Below, one piece after another: positions 1,213-12,822 of a stretch of DNA of 16,379 nt (its first letter is position 1; each line of letters opens with the position of its first letter). Made by a program: the position numbers and the translations under genes. The notes below the pieces were generated by a model. That model was not told where the DNA came from, did not search any database, and worked only from the letters and a program-made list of their open reading frames with translations. The DNA comes from Gemmatimonadales bacterium (GTDB lineage Bacteria; Gemmatimonadota; Gemmatimonadetes; Gemmatimonadales; GWC2-71-9). Where the stretch lies: NCBI GenBank assembly GCA_041615815.1, contig JBFJCP010000052.1:1-16379 (forward strand), written 5' to 3'.

Positions 1213-2217
1213 TCAGTACTCATATCCAAACAGCCCGAAGGGCACGTTGATACGGAATGGGCCCGTACGGAGATCGATCTCCGCATCTGCGCCGTTCCTG
1301 GCGACGACCGTGACACCTAAGGACAGCACGAACACCAACATACCGCCGGCCAACACGACCTGCTGCGGCATTTCGAAATCGAGGGAATCGCTGAAGGGAG
1401 TCAGCTCATCGAAGAACACGTACCCGTACGAGCCCTCACCGCGTGCACTCCTCTCGAGGATGGTCTGATCCGGAAGCTGGGCTACGCCCTCGAGCCCTCC
1501 AGTGGGCGAAAAATTGAACACGTTCATTGCGGCCGCGCATTCGGCGGCGGCTTCACTCTGACCGGAACACCCCGGCGGAGGAATCTCCAGCTGCCATCCA
1601 CCATTGGCCTGGAGCACCATGGAACCGCTGATCGTGGCGTCCACACTGCTCTGCCACGAGAAGAGAAAGTCGATGAACAGCGTCATCGCGCCAAAACCAC
1701 CACCGCCCGTGTTCACGCTCAAATCGACATCCGCAGTATTGGAGAAGAACCCGGCTTGCGTCACCAGCTGCTGTGTTCCCGCCGTGTTCACGTTGCCAAA
1801 GAAGCTCTGAAACAGACCCGACGACGAAATGTCGTCCGCTCTGGCCAATATCAGAACGCCCGTGGGATTGCCGCGAAAATCCTTCAAGGACTTCGCTCGC
1901 CGCTTGAACGCGCTGATGCGTTTCGCCTGCCGCTTGGCACGGGCCTTCGCGCTCGTCACAACCCTGCGGCGTTGTTCACGGGAGAACTTGGCCATCGACG
2001 CCGCATCCCGCTGTTGTAGCTTGTCGATGAGCTCGGTATCGATGTCCAAAGCTCTGGCCGCCTTCTGGAACAGCTTGTCTCGCTGCCGCGACACCACGTT
2101 CGATCGTCGCGCGTTGTACGCGAGGTTACGCAGCTGGTTCTGCGTTGCAGCCTTCCGCGCACTCTGAAGCTCGGCGTGCGCACTCCGGATGATCTTCCGT
2201 TTGAGATCCTTTTGCAT
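1213..2217 (-). CDS. Hypothetical protein, 334 aa; Arg/Lys-rich helical N-terminus, beta-rich C-terminal domain
   Basis: Long ORF, ATG preceded by GGAGG about 7 nt upstream; no family recognised. Confidence 0.75.
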   Translation of the reverse strand: MQKDLKRKIIRSAHAELQSARKAATQNQLRNLAYNARRSNVVSRQRDKLFQKAARALDIDTELIDKLQQRDAASMAKFSREQRRRVVTSAKARAKRQAKRISAFKRRAKSLKDFRGNPTGVLILARADDISSSGLFQSFFGNVNTAGTQQLVTQAGFFSNTADVDLSVNTGGGGFGAMTLFIDFLFSWQSSVDATISGSMVLQANGGWQLEIPPPGCSGQSEAAAECAAAMNVFNFSPTGGLEGVAQLPDQTILERSARGEGSYGYVFFDELTPFSDSLDFEMPQQVVLAGGMLVFVLSLGVTVVARNGADAEIDLRTGPFRINVPFGLFGYEY

Positions 2218-5858: not shown

Positions 5859-5956
5859 ACAGGGAGCCGGGAGCGGGGAGCGGGAGTGAAAGCTGGATCG
5901 CGGCGACAGGTCCGCCTCGAGATCCGGCTCACTGCTCCCCGCTCCCCGCTCCCTGT
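5859..5956. repeat. Inverted pair of tandem heptamer (GGGGAGC-like) arrays between convergent genes; probable long hairpin
   Basis: ACAGGGAGCCGGGAGCGGGGAGC (5859-5881) versus GCTCCCCGCTCCCCGCTCCCTGT (5934-5956): 23-bp inverted repeat with one mismatch. Confidence 0.75.
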
Positions 5957-6765
5957 TTGCCCGCCACCACCAACGACCGGAGCAGCAATCCTTCGTCGAT
6001 CCCTTCCAGCATGCGGCGCTTCTTCTGCTGTTCCTCCTCGAAGGCGTGCGGTCCCTCGGCCACGCGCAACTCGTCTTCCACTTCTCCGCGCGCCCGCAGG
6101 ATGGCCTCGCAGGTGGTCCGGAACAGCGGGGTGACATCCTCCACCAGGATTACGGAGAAGCCGACCGAGCGCGCGAGGTCATCGGGCGACGCCGCGGCAG
6201 CGGTGGCCGAGGGCCCCAGCTCGTTGGCCCTTCGTTGAGCGGTCGCACTCAGGCCCTTTGGCGTATGAATGACATACCCCGCCATCCGGCCGCCCGGCCC
6301 GAGCACGCGATGGCATTCTCTCAGCACGGAGAGCTTGTCCGGAATTCAGCAGAACACGTCCGCGTGCACGAGTGCGTCGAACCGGTTCGACCCCAACGGC
6401 AGCGCGCGGCCATCGGCGACGACGGCGTGCGCCCTGTCCTGAGCTCCGCCGGCTGCGAGCTGGCCTTTGGCTGCCTTGAGTGCATCGAACGGGATATCGC
6501 TGGAGACCAGACGGCATGCGCTCAGCGCGGCGAGATGAGAGCCGGGCCAGCCTCGTCCGGCGCCCACATCCAGCAACGAGCTATCATGAGACAAGCCGAG
6601 ATGCGTGCCGAGCGCTCCGGCCTGCTCCACCGTCGTGTACCCGTTGAGCCCCACCTCGTGGCCGAGCACGGCACGCTCGACGTGTTTGGCGGCGTCCGAC
6701 ACGGGACGACCGTACTCCTCGAGGAAACGCTCCAGGTTGTCCTGCTCGTCGAGATGGCGCGGCAT
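5929..6765 (-). CDS. Class I SAM-dependent methyltransferase, probable selenoprotein (Cys139-Sec140), 278 aa by UGA read-through
   Basis: ATG 6765 with GAGGGGAG RBS; motif I LLDVGAGRG; ADGRALPL...FDALVHADVFC-TGA(6348-6346)-IPDKLSVLRECHRVLGPGGRM in one frame, restoring the usual post-motif-IV to LxPGG segment; SECIS-like hairpin follows the TGA. Confidence 0.85.
6318..6348 (-). promoter_or_regulatory. In-frame UGA plus putative bacterial SECIS element
   Basis: mRNA UGA-AUUCCGGACAAG-CUCUC-CGUGCU-GAGAG: 5-bp stem starting 12 nt after UGA, 6-nt loop starting 17 nt after UGA with G at loop position 2 followed by U. Confidence 0.7.
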
Positions 6766-6812
6766 GGTGAGACTCCCCTCGAGGGCCGTCGCGACGCTGT
6801 CTGGCCCCTTCT

Positions 6813-7141: not shown

Positions 7142-9109
7142 ATGAAGCTGGTCGAAGTTCGGGTCCGTAAGTTTCGGAATATCCTCGACTCGGGGTCCGT
7201 GCCCATCCAACCGGATATCACCTGCCTCGTTGGCAAGAACGAGTCGGGGAAGACCGCGTTGTTGCACGCACTCTACCGGTTGCACCCCGATCGCCCCAAC
7301 GCCGAATTCTCGGTGGCCCACCAATACCCCGCCTGGTTCGAGAAGCGCGACCGCCTGAAGGGCGAGGCGCTCGAGAAACTGCGCCCCATCCTCGCCGCCT
7401 TCGAGCTCGAAGATCACGACGTGAGCGTGCTCGAAGAAGTGTTCGGCCCGGGCATCCTGCGATCGGATCGCGTGGTGGTGGCCAGGGACTACGGCGGACA
7501 GATCTGGTATTCCCTCGAGATCGACGACGCCGCCTTCGTCCGACACCTCCTCTCGGCCGTGCAGCTTCCCAAAGAGACGGACGAGCGACGATCGCGCATC
7601 AGCTCGATCGATGGACTGCGACACTTCATCCACGACCTCAGAACGGGACGAGTCTCCGGCCGCGAGCTGGGCTCGATGCGGAGGGAGATCGCGGACGATC
7701 TCGAGTCACAATTGAACGCGTCCCTGGGCGGCCGCAAACTGCTCGATGCGGTTCGCTTCGCGCTGGAGCCGCTGATCCCCAAGTTCCTCTACTTCAGTGC
7801 TTACAGCAGCCTGCCCTACGCGGTGGACATTCGCCGAATCATGTCCGCCGATCCCGCCACCCTGGACGACGATGAGCTGACCGCGCTCGCGCTCCTCAAG
7901 CTCGCCTCCGCGGACGAAACGTATCTCCAGAACGGCGACTACGAACGCCGAACCCGAGAACTGGAGTACGTGGCAAACGCGATCACGGACGATGTACTGA
8001 AGTATTGGAGCCAAAATCCCCTGCTGCGCGTGAAGCCGGACATCACGCAGCGCATCGAACAGACCCTGGAGGGCGACACGGTCCTCAAGGAAGAGCTCAA
8101 GATCCGCATCTGGGACGAGCGACACTCCCTCTCCCTGCCCTTCAACGAGCATTCCACCGGCTTTCGATGGTTCTTCTCGTTTCTCGCAGCCTTCTCGGCG
8201 TACGAGCACAGCGCCGAGCCCCTCGTGATCTTGCTGGACGAGCCGGCGCTCGGCCTCCACGCGCGCGCACAACGGGACTTCCTGCGTTTCCTGGAGGAGC
8301 GGCTCGCGCCCCGGTGCCAGGTCATCTACACCACGCACTCCCCGTTCATGGTGCAACCCGGAAGGCTCGATCGCGTGCGGTTGGTGGAAGATCGGGGAAA
8401 AGAGTTGGGTGCGATGGTTTCCGCGGAGGTGACGAGCGCCGATCCGGATACCCTGTTTCCGCTCCAAGGTGCGCTCGGCTTCGACATGGCACGGCATCTG
8501 TTCACGGGACCGCACAAACTCGTGGTCGAGCGAACGTGCGACTTCACCTATCTCACCGTGCTATCCGACTACCTGCGCCAACTCCCCGGTAGGACCGCGC
8601 TCGACGAACGGTGGACCATCGTGCCCGTGGGCGGAGCGGACCTCGTCCCCGCGTTCGTGGCACTCGTGGGCAATCAGGTGGACGTCACGGTCCTGATCAA
8701 CGCCCGCAAGCAGGGCCACCGCATGCTCTCGGCGCTGACGACCCAGGGTATCCTCCAGGTGAATCGCGTTATCAGCATCGGGCAGGTGGTGGGAGCGAGG
8801 TTCGGTCACATGGAAGATGTGTTCGAACCCAACGATTACCTGGCGCTGTACAATCGCGCCTTCGACAAGAACTGGAAGTTCAACGATCTCGACGGCGGCG
8901 GAACGATCGTGTATCGGATCGCGCGGAAGGAAGAAATTTCGAGCTTCGATCACGGGCGGCCGGCCGAGGAGCTGCTGCGCCACCGTGAGGAGATCATGGC
9001 GCAGCTCTCAGCCGAAACGCTCGACCGGTTCGAGGCGCTGTTCAAGGTGCTGAACGCCACGCTGCCGTCGAACACCTTTCAGATCGAGACGGACGCGGGC
9101 GTTGCATAG
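7142..9109 (+). CDS. OLD-family-like ABC ATPase (AAA_15/AAA_21 type) with C-terminal TOPRIM-like domain
   Basis: N-terminal VRKFRNI; Walker A GKNESGKT; signature STGFRWF; Walker B ILLDEP; H-loop YTTHSP; TOPRIM-like LVVERTCD...PVGG...VLINAR...MEDVF. Confidence 0.88.
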   Translation: MKLVEVRVRKFRNILDSGSVPIQPDITCLVGKNESGKTALLHALYRLHPDRPNAEFSVAHQYPAWFEKRDRLKGEALEKLRPILAAFELEDHDVSVLEEVFGPGILRSDRVVVARDYGGQIWYSLEIDDAAFVRHLLSAVQLPKETDERRSRISSIDGLRHFIHDLRTGRVSGRELGSMRREIADDLESQLNASLGGRKLLDAVRFALEPLIPKFLYFSAYSSLPYAVDIRRIMSADPATLDDDELTALALLKLASADETYLQNGDYERRTRELEYVANAITDDVLKYWSQNPLLRVKPDITQRIEQTLEGDTVLKEELKIRIWDERHSLSLPFNEHSTGFRWFFSFLAAFSAYEHSAEPLVILLDEPALGLHARAQRDFLRFLEERLAPRCQVIYTTHSPFMVQPGRLDRVRLVEDRGKELGAMVSAEVTSADPDTLFPLQGALGFDMARHLFTGPHKLVVERTCDFTYLTVLSDYLRQLPGRTALDERWTIVPVGGADLVPAFVALVGNQVDVTVLINARKQGHRMLSALTTQGILQVNRVISIGQVVGARFGHMEDVFEPNDYLALYNRAFDKNWKFNDLDGGGTIVYRIARKEEISSFDHGRPAEELLRHREEIMAQLSAETLDRFEALFKVLNATLPSNTFQIETDAGVA

Positions 9110-10042: not shown

Positions 10043-10351
10043 ATGGCGAGGAAGCGTGAGCCGAAAGCTCGCCTGGATGCGTACGAAGCCGTCTTCACCG
10101 CATTGGCCCACCCAACTCGGCGACGGATTCTGCTGACCCTCAACTTCGAGGGCGGCTCGATGAGCGCGGGCGAGATCGCCGCGATCTTCGAGCACGCATG
10201 GCCAACAATCACGCGGCATCTCAGGGTGCTGGTGTCCGCCGGGCTGCTCCACTCCGAGCGGGACGGTCGCTCACGCGTCTATCGCATCGACCGGCGACGA
10301 CTGGACCTCGTTCGGGACTGGCTGGGGTGGTTCTCGAAGGACCCCGGCTGA
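10043..10351 (+). CDS. ArsR/SmtB family transcriptional regulator
   Basis: VFTALAHPTRRRIL...SAGEIA...WPTITRHLRVLVSAGLL..ERDGRSRVYRI winged HTH; GAGAGG RBS; no Cys residues. Confidence 0.92.
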   Translation: MARKREPKARLDAYEAVFTALAHPTRRRILLTLNFEGGSMSAGEIAAIFEHAWPTITRHLRVLVSAGLLHSERDGRSRVYRIDRRRLDLVRDWLGWFSKDPG

Positions 10352-10377
10352 CCGATCGCAATCCACGGGAGGACGTC

Positions 10378-10836
10378 ATGACCACGAAGAAGCGAGGCAA
10401 GCCCACGGAGCAGACCGCAGCGAAGGCGGCCACGGCAACGGCTTCCGACGACCCGTTGCTGTTTCGCCTCAACGTGGAGGTCGGCGATCTCGACGAGGCC
10501 GCCGAGTTCTACCGTGTCCTGTTGGGCCTCGTGGGCCGCCGGCAGGCGGGATCACGTGTCTATTTCACGTGCGGCGCAGTCACGCTCCAGGTCGTGGACG
10601 TCTCCTCGGTGCGCGCGCCACATCCAGCGGCCAAGGCGCTGTCGTTCACCGTGCGCGACCTCGACGCCGTATTCGAGCGCGCGAAAACGCTGGATTGCCT
10701 CTCCAACGAGGAGGTGCACGGCGAACCGGGCGGCCGTATCAGCGTGCGACCGTGGGGCGAGCGCTCGTTCTACGCAGAGGACCCGTGGCGGAATCCGCTG
10801 TGCTTCGTTGAGGCAGGAACGGTCTATCCCGGGTAA
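10378..10836 (+). CDS. VOC family (glyoxalase/bleomycin-resistance) protein
   Basis: ATG 10378 after GGGAGGA; VGDLDEAAEFYRVLLG...FTVRDLDAVFERA...RPWGERSFYAEDPWRNPLCFV. Confidence 0.9.
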   Translation: MTTKKRGKPTEQTAAKAATATASDDPLLFRLNVEVGDLDEAAEFYRVLLGLVGRRQAGSRVYFTCGAVTLQVVDVSSVRAPHPAAKALSFTVRDLDAVFERAKTLDCLSNEEVHGEPGGRISVRPWGERSFYAEDPWRNPLCFVEAGTVYPG

Positions 10837-10948: not shown

Positions 10949-11890
10949 TTACGGCCGCTCCGCCACCCAATCCCCTTCCCGCTCGTCTTCCGGCGTGACG
11001 ACGATCGGAACGACCTGACCGTCCGCCACCCGTACGGCTTCGAGGTCGTAGTCCGTCTCACCGGTTCCCTCCACCGTGTACAGCAGCCACACGTCGTCCG
11101 GTGACCAACGCGGTCCGTACCGCAAACCTGCACCCGGCGTGATCGTGCGGCGATCGGTGCCGTCCCGTTTCATGACCACGATTCTCGAGACACCGCCCGC
11201 TTCCGCGTGGAACGCTATGCGCGAGCCGTCGTGCGAGAATGCACCGCCGTACTCGTCCGCGGCGTCGGACGTGAGACGCGACTCCTCACCGGTCTCGACG
11301 TCGAGCTGGAACAGATCCAGGCTGCCATCGACGTCGCGACTCAGCAGAATCCCGCGGCCGTCCGGCGTCCAGTCTTGCGGCCCCAGCGACGAGGTGAGCG
11401 GCGCGCGGGTGATTTGCTCGAGGTTACCGCCATCCGCATCCACGACGTAGAGGTGGCCGGGAAACGGACCGGCACTCCCCAGCGCGTAGCCTCGGGTGGA
11501 CATGAACGCGAGACGCTCGCCGTCCGGAGCCCATGCAGGCAGCACGTCGTACGCCGGATGGTCCGTCAGGTTCAGCAGCCCGCCGTCGGCATGCATGACG
11601 TAGATGTCGATGGCCCCCGAACGACGCGACTGAAATGCGAGTGTGCGGCCATCCGGCGCGAAGCGGCCGAAGTTGTTGCCCGATGGATCACCGGTGAGGC
11701 GCACCGGCGCGGCCGCGCCCGGAACACGCAGATAGATGTCCGCGTTGCCGTTCCTATGACCGGTGAACACCACGCGGGCCGAGTCGATGGACCATGCCGT
11801 GACCGGGCGTGCATCCCGCCCGGCGCAGCCCATGGCGGCCACGAGTGACGCGAGCAGCGTCCAGCCCCGGAGTTCGGTGGCCCTCACCAT
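10949..11890 (-). CDS. TolB-like beta-propeller (PD40 repeat) protein, probable lipoprotein
   Basis: ATG 11890 overlaps the end of the SRPBCC gene; lipobox-like VAAMG-C; repeats FAPDGRTLAF, WAPDGERLAF, WTPDGRGIL, FSHDGSRIAF, WSPDDVWLLY. Confidence 0.85.
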   Translation of the reverse strand: MVRATELRGWTLLASLVAAMGCAGRDARPVTAWSIDSARVVFTGHRNGNADIYLRVPGAAAPVRLTGDPSGNNFGRFAPDGRTLAFQSRRSGAIDIYVMHADGGLLNLTDHPAYDVLPAWAPDGERLAFMSTRGYALGSAGPFPGHLYVVDADGGNLEQITRAPLTSSLGPQDWTPDGRGILLSRDVDGSLDLFQLDVETGEESRLTSDAADEYGGAFSHDGSRIAFHAEAGGVSRIVVMKRDGTDRRTITPGAGLRYGPRWSPDDVWLLYTVEGTGETDYDLEAVRVADGQVVPIVVTPEDEREGDWVAERP

Positions 11891-12411
11891 GTCACTTTCT
11901 CCACTTCTTCCGTCTTGGTGGACTTGGGAAGCATCCACATCGTGAAGCCCATGACCGAATACAGGAGCCGCGTCCGCATGGGGATCGTGCCCGTCTCGAG
12001 TTCGCTCTTGAGCAGCCCCAGGATCTCTAGCCAACCGGCCTTCTGTTTGTCAGCGCCCTTGTGGACGCTCGTGAACCCGGCGTGCGTGAGCGTGACCCGG
12101 CAGCCGTTGGGGATCTCGCTCAGCTCCCAGGTGACGAGTGTCGCGGGTTCTTTCCCGTTCTGCACGAAGTGATAGGTGTGCGCGAACTTTCGCGGCGGAT
12201 CCACCTCCACCACCTCTCCCACCACGAACACCCGTTTCTTGTTGGGGCTGTAGTAGCGCAGCCGGCTCCCCGGCCTGAGCTCCGTCTCCAGCACGCAGTT
12301 GTACAGCGGCCGCTGGATGCTGCCGGTCTTTGTGATCTCGCTCCACACCTGCTGGACGGGTACGTGGATATCGATCGACAACACGTGCGTGATGTCACCG
12401 GGGTCGGGCAT
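11884..12411 (-). CDS. SRPBCC (AHSA1/START-like) ligand-binding domain protein
   Basis: IDIHVPVQQVWSEIT...GEVVEVDPPRKFAHT...TLVTWEL...CRVTLTH...GWLEILGLLKSELETG; GGAGA RBS; follows an ArsR gene. Confidence 0.9.
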   Translation of the reverse strand: MPDPGDITHVLSIDIHVPVQQVWSEITKTGSIQRPLYNCVLETELRPGSRLRYYSPNKKRVFVVGEVVEVDPPRKFAHTYHFVQNGKEPATLVTWELSEIPNGCRVTLTHAGFTSVHKGADKQKAGWLEILGLLKSELETGTIPMRTRLLYSVMGFTMWMLPKSTKTEEVEKVTW

Positions 12412-12435
12412 ACGTTCTCCCTGTCTGTATCGTGG

Positions 12436-12786
12436 TCATCCGGCCTTGGACCGGGTGTCCCGCTCCAGCTGGTCCTTGAGATCCACCAGTGACTCTGTCC
12501 AGGGCTGCTGGTAGCGGCTCACCCAGCGGTCGTGAATCTGTTGGATCGGAACGGGGTTGAGGAAGTTCATGGTGGTGCGGCCGTCTTTGCGGCGGACCAC
12601 GAGGTGCGCGTCTTCCAGCACACCGAGATGCTGCATAATGGCAAACCGCGAATGACGGCGAAACTTCCGGGCGAGCGCCCCCGTGGGCTTGGGGCCGTCA
12701 CACAGCAAGTCCAGGATGCGGCGACGGACCGGATTGGCCAGCGCGCGCCACACGGGCTCGAGGTCCTTCGAACGGCGTGCTTGCAT
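12436..12786 (-). CDS. ArsR/SmtB family transcriptional regulator (SRPBCC-associated type)
   Basis: VWRALANPVRRRILDLL...SRFAIMQHLGVLEDAHLV..RKDGR...LNPVPIQQIHDRWVSRY; ATG 12786 preferred, since the track's TTG start at 12822 coincides with the -35 box. Confidence 0.92.
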   Translation of the reverse strand: MQARRSKDLEPVWRALANPVRRRILDLLCDGPKPTGALARKFRRHSRFAIMQHLGVLEDAHLVVRRKDGRTTMNFLNPVPIQQIHDRWVSRYQQPWTESLVDLKDQLERDTRSKAG

Positions 12787-12822
12787 ATGTGATAATAATA
12801 TCACATATTGATCGTCCGTCAA
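12785..12822 (-). promoter_or_regulatory. Promoter TTGACG-N16-TATTAT with perfect 10-4-10 ArsR operator ATATGTGATA-ATAA-TATCACATAT (12785-12808)
   Basis: Palindrome read directly; covers the -10 region and the ArsR start codon; sits in a 50-bp divergent gap. Confidence 0.8.

Follow-up and report, generated by a model that had tools for sequence, protein, structure and literature searches.

Two adjacent open reading frames on the minus strand of a 16,379-nt stretch of a Gemmatimonadales contig (hereafter the window) raise the question of whether they are gene fragments or a single selenoprotein gene and, if the latter, what selenocysteine (Sec) does in its product. The ORFs, 6346..6765 (139 aa, C-terminus HADVFC) and 5929..6327 (132 aa), share a frame, and reading TGA as Sec yields one protein of 278 residues (5932-6765) with a sole internal TGA at codon 140. 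The locus has the following features:

5929..6765, minus strand: selenoprotein methyltransferase gene, 278 codons plus a terminal TGA, predicted from the frame, a Pfam domain, a structure model and relatives
6346..6348, minus strand: in-frame TGA (Sec140), with TGA in 157 of 162 family loci and a Cys codon in the remaining 5
6349..6351, minus strand: Cys139 (TGC), first residue of the dyad, with a Cys codon at 151 of the 162 family loci and TGA at the other 11
6773..6780, minus strand: purine-rich GAGGGGAG, resembling a ribosome-binding site by its sequence, 7 nt upstream of the ATG
5859..5956, no strand: GC-rich 23-nt inverted repeat (arms 5859-5881 and 5934-5956) between the methyltransferase and the convergent TonB-receptor gene

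The Pfam Methyltransf_11 match to the read-through protein spans the TGA (residues 65-161, E 1.1e-15), compared with E 4.4e-7 for the N-half alone and no Pfam match for the C-half alone, and relatives align over residues ~1-270, on both sides of the stop. These results bear out the initial annotation, which had proposed one TGA-interrupted gene that gene callers would split in two; the exact 139-aa N-half is indeed on record as a separate database protein, on 72 contigs. The gene is present once in the window's genome (4.19 Mb, 95.7% complete), and a genome of the same genus (G002) carries a syntenic copy that is 75% identical (L015:3333-4142). The inverted repeat overlaps the last methyltransferase codons, which encode a non-conserved C-terminal tail, and the stretch 5859-5956 has 18 BLAST matches in the genome, with related copies on several contigs. 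No promoter-like site was found on the gene's strand, and the window contains no Rfam match and no tRNA gene.

We then asked how the interrupted codon reads in relatives. A profile scan identified 175 relatives in GTDB genomes (among 185,579 species genomes, using two short patterns) and at least 470 in metagenomes, and DNA was fetched for the best 80 of each, a sample biased toward the query's side. Four of the 166 loci examined were distant His-type genes, leaving 162 family loci (including the window's own gene and duplicates) from Gemmatimonadota, Acidobacteriota, Actinomycetota, Chloroflexota and KSB1. Columns 139 and 140 of these loci read Cys-TGA in 148, TGA-TGA in 9 (L043, L046, L081, L087, L151, L154, L159, L171 and L172), TGA-Cys in 2 (TGA-TGC; L094 and L174) and Cys-Cys in 3, with no other codon. 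Tabulating codon 140 had been suggested at the outset, with conserved TGA or Cys and homology on both sides as the expectation and Trp, Arg or other non-Cys residues in close homologs as counter-evidence; the outcome at the DNA level was TGA in 157 of 162 loci and TGC or TGT in the other 5, so that only TGA or Cys occurs (162/162), with homology on both sides. The frame beyond the TGA is open for ~131-140 codons in nearly all loci. At 90% identity, 161 loci (L010 was dropped as a duplicate of L015) formed 113 clusters: 102 CU, 6 UU, 2 UC and 3 CC. Several of the tandem-TGA genes (the UU/UC set) have purE (AIR carboxylase) upstream and a cupin or ferredoxin gene downstream.

Protein records give a different picture, leaning toward CC because only the Cys forms are called whole. 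Among 150 representatives, 138 could be aligned at His134: 88 have CC, 36 stop at Cys139 and 5 at residue 138, 2 have CW, and the other 7 show something else, being outgroup sequences or frameshifted calls. Of 401 genomes sampled evenly across the phylum, 27 matched at 1e-45; 9 contain an internal TGA, all of them C-TGA (9/9), and of the 18 without stops the 5 inspected were all His-type sister genes. The family is thus carried by about 2% of sampled Gemmatimonadota, and it is present in 2 of the 61 nearest relatives of the window's genome. None of 39 pattern matches in viral contigs was a relative, and a plasmid collection gave no match at 1e-20.

Decoding of UGA as Sec in bacteria calls for a hairpin just past the codon, and a candidate is present:

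6318..6333, minus strand: bacterial SECIS-type hairpin CUCUC-CGUGCU-GAGAG, from the predicted fold and synonymous conservation

Its loop (CGUGCU) starts 17 nt past the UGA, on a stem of 5 bp and with G at loop position 2, in agreement with the four bSECIS criteria in section 5 of PMC13188914. The predicted folding energy is -10.4 kcal/mol for a 42-nt piece, which is not better than that of shuffled sequences (z -0.08 to 0.36). The case for a SECIS therefore rests on conservation rather than energy, and the conservation appears decisive. Across 110 non-redundant Sec genes, the codons that build the hairpin are strongly biased relative to the same genes elsewhere: Leu145 is CTC in 109/109 (38% elsewhere), Ser146 is TCC in 104/108 (24%), Val147 is GTG in 105/106 (37%) and Arg149 is AGA in 98/109 (4%). 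All five stem pairs are retained in 104 of the 110 Sec genes and in 0 of 3 Cys-Cys genes, and two genes show a two-sided change of one stem pair. In UU and UC genes the hairpin occupies the identical position, its distance being 20 nt to the first TGA and 17 to the second, and the frame beyond is open; in UC genes it would act on codon 139 alone, so double decoding in UU genes is plausible. Searching the whole genome for TGA followed by a CGTG-loop hairpin gave 42 matches and no other evident gene, and the genome's SelD has a different loop.

These patterns bear on the alternative that the gene encodes no selenoprotein, that is, that the TGA is a nonsense mutation, a sequencing error, the end of a truly split gene or a Trp codon. 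In its favor, Trp stands at column 140 in 2 of the 138 aligned database proteins and in one cluster member, and a few loci (for example, L015, L114, L115 and L121) contain extra TAA or TAG stops. The Trp forms, seen as protein records only, come from short contigs (926 and 1416 bases, one cluster), the other members of their cluster are called as 115-aa C-halves and the Sec-clade 'KLSVLR' is present, so they are likely gene calls with TGA read as W. Against this alternative, the codon is TGA, never TAA or TAG, in 157/162 loci from five phyla and alternates only with Cys, the downstream frame is open and the hairpin is fixed in Sec genes only. Contigs from 4/4 sequencing runs (2 possibly the source of this DNA, 2 from other studies; contigs rather than raw reads) list no difference at 6346-6348, which together with the 157 TGA loci argues against chance or error. 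We consider a non-Sec gene very improbable; a frameshift or nonsense pseudogene and TGA=Trp were rejected on the column-140 codon pattern and the Sec-only fixation of the hairpin. The L015 copy has an additional TAG about ten codons ahead of the normal end, and L114/L115 (TAA) and L121 (TAG) also look truncated.

Components for Sec insertion were also found. The initial annotation had pointed to selA, selB, selC and selD as a check, and the window's genome encodes all of them above cut-off: selA (507 bits), selB (362.5 bits), selD (368.3 bits, itself with one TGA) and a tRNA-Sec with anticodon TCA (71.6 bits). Of the 79 genomes, 49 were tested: selA turned up in 40 of the 47 Sec-type genomes and in neither of the two with Cys-Cys. 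Six of the seven Sec-type genomes without selA (including the unpublished G102) have selB above its threshold or a tRNA-Sec scoring 66 bits or more, and the seventh, a 1.4-Mb bin, has a partial selB-like match only. The Cys-Cys genomes, a small set (n = 2) of incomplete bins, lack a selB match, and tRNA-Sec was absent from one and weak (49-54 bits) in the other. Within Gemmatimonadota selA does not discriminate, being present in 54 of 61 relatives. From the codon pattern, frame and hairpin, the apparent fragments are one intact methyltransferase gene whose internal TGA almost certainly encodes selenocysteine, and the UGA is very probably translated by SelB and tRNA-Sec via the hairpin to give a 278-residue SAM methyltransferase of the PMT/RebM class.

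The class assignment draws on conserved residues and a structure model:

6541..6573, minus strand: SAM-binding motif I, LDVGAGRGWPG (residues 65-75), with G68, G70, G72 and W73 each in 99% of 161 proteins; Pfam
6496..6498, minus strand: Asp90 at the end of strand 2 (model strand 85-90), 99% conserved, a probable contact of the SAM ribose as in class I enzymes
6358..6366, minus strand: His134-x-Asp136 just ahead of the dyad, both in 100% of 161 proteins
6712..6714, minus strand: Tyr18 in the N-terminal lid helix, 98% conserved, a candidate counterpart of PfPMT Tyr19

With Cys substituted for Sec and a 52-row alignment, the model reached pLDDT 94.8 and pTM 0.92. Motif I, the acidic residue after strand 2 and the Rossmann-like fold of the model identify the predicted protein as a class I SAM methyltransferase. 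The best matches among solved structures are phosphoethanolamine N-methyltransferases, SpnF, SDMT, TleD and RebM (Z 24.4-26.4). PfPMT, AtPMT, RebM/AtmM/MitM and SDMT match the full-length fold (Z 24-26, rmsd 2.4-3.4 over 229-263 residues) and share the Asp136 column and the lid tyrosine, but at only 14-22% identity and with His (His-His in RebM) after strand 4 where the present family has Cys-Sec. In profile alignments, Cys139-Sec140 coincides with RebM 140-141 (His-His in 'ESLHHM'), and Asp136 and Sec140 coincide with the Asp and His of 'SRDTILH' in AtPMT1/2. RebM His140/His141 we take to be catalytic. PMC6705855 describes a Tyr19/His132 dyad in PfPMT, and PDB titles name D128A and H132A mutants, whose positions are four residues apart just as Asp136 and Sec140 are. 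In a sister family sharing 28-31% identity, column 140 is His and follows Leu, Asn or Cys. By these alignments, Cys-Sec sits at the column that holds the catalytic histidine in related enzymes, and the dyad directly follows model strand 129-133, which agrees with the earlier suggestion that it lies after the strand following the SAM motifs and faces the active site. Columns 139 and 140 are Cys or Sec in 100% of 161 proteins, at identities down to ~38%, and the only other Cys columns above 80% are 84 and 151. Since the dyad replaces an acceptor-activating residue, it most likely touches the acceptor.

No named family accounts for the protein. Phosphoethanolamine N-methyltransferase was rejected because the column of its catalytic His (PfPMT His132, numbering deduced from the motif) is Sec/Cys. 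Membership of MduS (NF045649), which the initial annotation had raised, did not hold: like the window protein MduS combines a methyltransferase domain with Sec, but the protein scores 15.4 bits against a cut-off of 380, the match is confined to residues 62-164 (best E among 52 family members, 2.1e-12), and the model is 338 long and listed with CxxU and two Sec, compared with CU and one Sec here. ArsM/Sec-ArsM (NF008823, motif UxxG) was likewise rejected at 24.7 bits versus a cut-off of 263; together with the fusions NF041536, NF041537 and NF047649 the scores span 24.7-41.1 bits versus cut-offs of 263-575. Sec-ArsM shares the class I SAM domain and a Sec at an active-site position, but its Sec occupies the Cys224-equivalent UxxG site rather than a CU pair at the end of strand 4. 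The ArsM cysteines (72, 174 and 224 in CmArsM; PMC5552862), to which the dyad had been likened, have no retained column in the family; the 'SNC' cysteine (column 174) aligns with Asp136 rather than the dyad, and ArsM ranks 46th among structure matches (Z 16.8), behind the PMT/RebM fold (Z 24-26). SaoL, SaoB, SaoC, HgcA, MbdU and KCU-star share the vicinal Cys-Sec dipeptide (table of PMC13188914), but none is a class I SAM methyltransferase or matches here in NCBIfam.

The family is apparently an uncatalogued bacterial selenoprotein family. A scan of NCBIfam 20.0, including the selenoprotein HMMs proposed as a check, gave no family at cut-off for the window protein. The 119-family table of PMC13188914 (2026) contains methyltransferase selenoproteins only with UxxG or CxxU and no UU motif; it also lists a methylated-DNA-protein-cysteine methyltransferase selenoprotein family. 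We found no description in the accessible parts of the literature searched, including deep-Sep, BSepDB and SelCysML, and an earlier listing may exist, for example among the unvalidated candidates of Deng et al. 2026; the available part of the BSepDB supplement has no 'methyltransferase' entry, although known ArsM types would be expected there. The bacterial selenoproteome thereby gains a widespread family of which each Sec copy is mis-called as two fragments.

To place the dyad in time, we built quick trees rooted on a seven-gene His-type outgroup, masking the dyad in all but two rows. The family forms one clade (SH-aLRT 100) with CU and UU as its deepest lines, CC proteins nest among Sec forms in several places, UU forms occupy two separate positions, and a topology holding all Sec forms together was rejected (p-AU 2.4e-5). 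The near-identical hairpin across phyla suggests one gain followed by several Sec-to-Cys reversions; repeated Sec gain is formally possible, and the root is unsure because the outgroup branch is long. According to a 2026 review, Sec-to-Cys change is rare in bacteria and found mainly in FdhA and SelD, whereas repeated change is apparent in this CU methyltransferase family. The CU, UU, UC and CC alleles, which occur naturally on a single scaffold with a near-invariant hairpin, could show what a methyltransferase gains from Sec, and the UU alleles bear on whether one bacterial SECIS decodes two consecutive UGA codons. The placement of Sec at the outgroup His column, rather than at a redox Cys, may indicate new methyl-transfer chemistry.

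What that chemistry acts on can be approached through the residues at the dyad and through neighboring genes. An ordinary N-, O- or C-methyltransferase, acting on an organic metabolite or lipid head group with Cys-Sec as a base, metal ligand or redox switch that never bonds to the substrate, would fit the best structural matches (PMT, SDMT, RebM and TleD, Z 24-26), the retained lid Tyr18, Asp136 and C-terminal helical cap, and the solitary position of most copies among unrelated genes. The strict Cys/Sec occupancy of both columns in 161 proteins, together with the UU and UC variants, argues instead for chalcogen chemistry at both sites. A selenol and a thiol are also poor general bases relative to His, and we regard an organic acceptor as unlikely. 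A methyl relay, in which SAM methylates Sec140 and Se-methyl-Sec donates to an acceptor or partner protein, or serves as a demethylating methyl sink, would suit Sec140, whose column in relatives faces the SAM methyl. It would also suit the very strong nucleophilicity of selenolate, and in the methylated-DNA-protein-cysteine methyltransferase selenoproteins Sec is presumably a candidate methyl acceptor. No conserved acceptor gene accompanies the family, however, and Se-methyl-Sec donates methyl groups poorly unless it first becomes a selenonium, making a relay quite improbable.

Gene neighborhoods were scanned for 189 of the 200 nearest neighbors picked (duplicates and three others were left out), with 2 kb on both sides in only 61 of 113 clusters. 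The window gene stands alone between a TonB-dependent receptor gene, with which it converges, and the gene of an OLD/AriA-like ATPase, from which it diverges, and most of the 189 neighbors are unrelated. Rhodanese-, DsrE- or persulfide-dioxygenase-like (MBL-rhodanese) genes occur in the fetched flanks of 18/113 clusters, in about four contexts: an ArsR-rhodanese cassette (Actinomycetota); MBL-rhodanese (Chloroflexota); in a single Gemmatimonadota clade, a tandem rhodanese together with an SQR-III-like gene that scores 182.7 bits, short of its cut-off; and, in KSB1, a gene resembling 3-mercaptopyruvate sulfurtransferase. Kin share neighbors, so these amount to about four independent signals only. 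The window's genome contains only approximately seven rhodanese genes in 4.2 Mb. At L056, L063, L132, L153 and L155-L157, a tandem rhodanese with a signal peptide lies directly upstream of the CU methyltransferase, and most of these loci also have a convergent type III SQR-like gene downstream.

The most frequent specific neighbor is an ArsM-like selenoprotein, in 16/113 clusters (17 before L047 was dropped for missing motifs), with hosts that are all Actinomycetota, Chloroflexota or unassigned metagenome contigs. This protein (for example, L149:2801-3571) scores 214-229 bits against the NF008823 cut-off of 263 and has TGA at the Cys224-equivalent (WTG-U-IAG) and Gly at the Cys174-equivalent 'SNC' column; the CGUGC loop of its hairpin is often common to both genes. 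At the Cys-Cys locus L162 the ArsM-like partner is also Cys and has no such hairpin. The ArsM-like selenoprotein and the CU methyltransferase share an ArsR-rhodanese / MBL-rhodanese / MFS / DsrE / VOC cassette, and another type of ArsM-like selenoprotein (WAG-U-LSG) occurs as a second one at L061 and L137.

This partner raises the alternative of a metalloid or heavy-metal methyltransferase, in which Cys-Sec binds and methylates As(III), MAs(III), Sb, Te or Hg, with a relay to the ArsM-like selenoprotein in Actinomycetota and Chloroflexota, the partner itself being without the first ArsM cysteine. Its Sec at the Cys224-equivalent, the parallel Cys state and lost hairpin at L162, the CU motifs of SaoL, SaoB, SaoC, HgcA and MbdU (review table), HMA-domain neighbors in 3 clusters and a single MerR-family neighbor all speak for it. 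Yet the family keeps no ArsM cysteine column, and the window protein reaches 24.7 of 263 bits with ArsM. Acr3, ArsB, ArsC and MerT families are absent from the 189 neighbors scanned, leaving no arsenic or mercury efflux there, and the window's genome (95.7% complete) has no PF01758 match while encoding a separate, canonical ArsM domain as a fusion with a radical SAM domain. We therefore view metalloid or metal methylation as rather unlikely. That fusion (L175:55-2451, contig C2 of genome G000) is a 798-aa radical SAM/arsenite-methyltransferase with canonical ArsM cysteines that adjoins a glycosyltransferase-like gene, possibly indicating arsenosugar-type chemistry.

Overall, the gene neighbors appear to favor sulfur or selenium handling over arsenic or mercury resistance. 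A methyltransferase for sulfur or selenium species is the reading we tentatively prefer, since the dyad is invariantly Cys/Sec at both sites and sulfur carriers are among the neighbors. Against it, ~87 of 113 clusters, including the window, are without a sulfur-transfer or ArsM-like neighbor and the linked ones represent few independent events. The most frequent specific neighbor is the ArsM-like selenoprotein, the enzymes with the closest solved structures transfer methyl to N or O of organic substrates, and one His-type sister gene precedes a presumed phosphatidylserine decarboxylase-like gene. In such an enzyme, the Sec140 selenolate would capture a reactive species (sulfide or persulfide, selenide, or a small thiol or selenol) as a mixed seleno-sulfide beside the SAM methyl, the species possibly arriving on rhodanese- or DsrE-type carriers. 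The captured atom would be methylated from SAM, the neighboring Cys139 would free the product by closing a Cys-Sec ring and cellular reductants would reopen it, so that sulfide or selenide would be detoxified or volatilized as methylated products. MddH, MddM1/2 and TMT1A/B, which are class I enzymes resembling UbiE, methylate H2S and methanethiol, the activity proposed here, but the accessible parts of PMC11445057 and PMC12904073 mention no Sec in them, and the likeness is one of description only.

A bolder version of the sulfur/selenium reading, which we consider speculative and somewhat unlikely as a whole, is a single ancient replacement of His by Cys-Sec in a PMT/RebM-type enzyme, giving covalent sulfur/selenium methylation in at least five phyla. 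Sec would have come first, with several Cys reversions (one in step with the ArsM-like partner), and UU would be a Sec-Sec, diselenide-capable site served by one SECIS. If true, this would reveal an overlooked route to methylated sulfur and selenium compounds in marine sediments and soils.

Several further observations concern genes outside the family or elsewhere in the window. The gene directly after the Cys-His gene L185 is, we presume, a phosphatidylserine decarboxylase look-alike. L185:1501-2295 belongs with L184, L186 and L011-L014 to the His-type sister family, found in Gemmatimonadota and without a curated family match, and its context hints at a bacterial PMT-like lipid role. Within the window, 1213-2217 (minus strand) is a 334-aa ORF whose N-terminal half is basic and which matches nothing in Pfam or PADLOC, and 7142-9109 (plus strand) encodes a solitary 655-aa AAA_15/AAA_21 ATPase with weak AriA, PtuA, Old and GajA matches and no evident partner. 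Two ArsR-family regulator pairs lie at 10043-10836 (plus strand) and 11884-12822 (minus strand), accompanied by a VOC/glyoxalase gene in one case and an SRPBCC (AHSA1) gene in the other.
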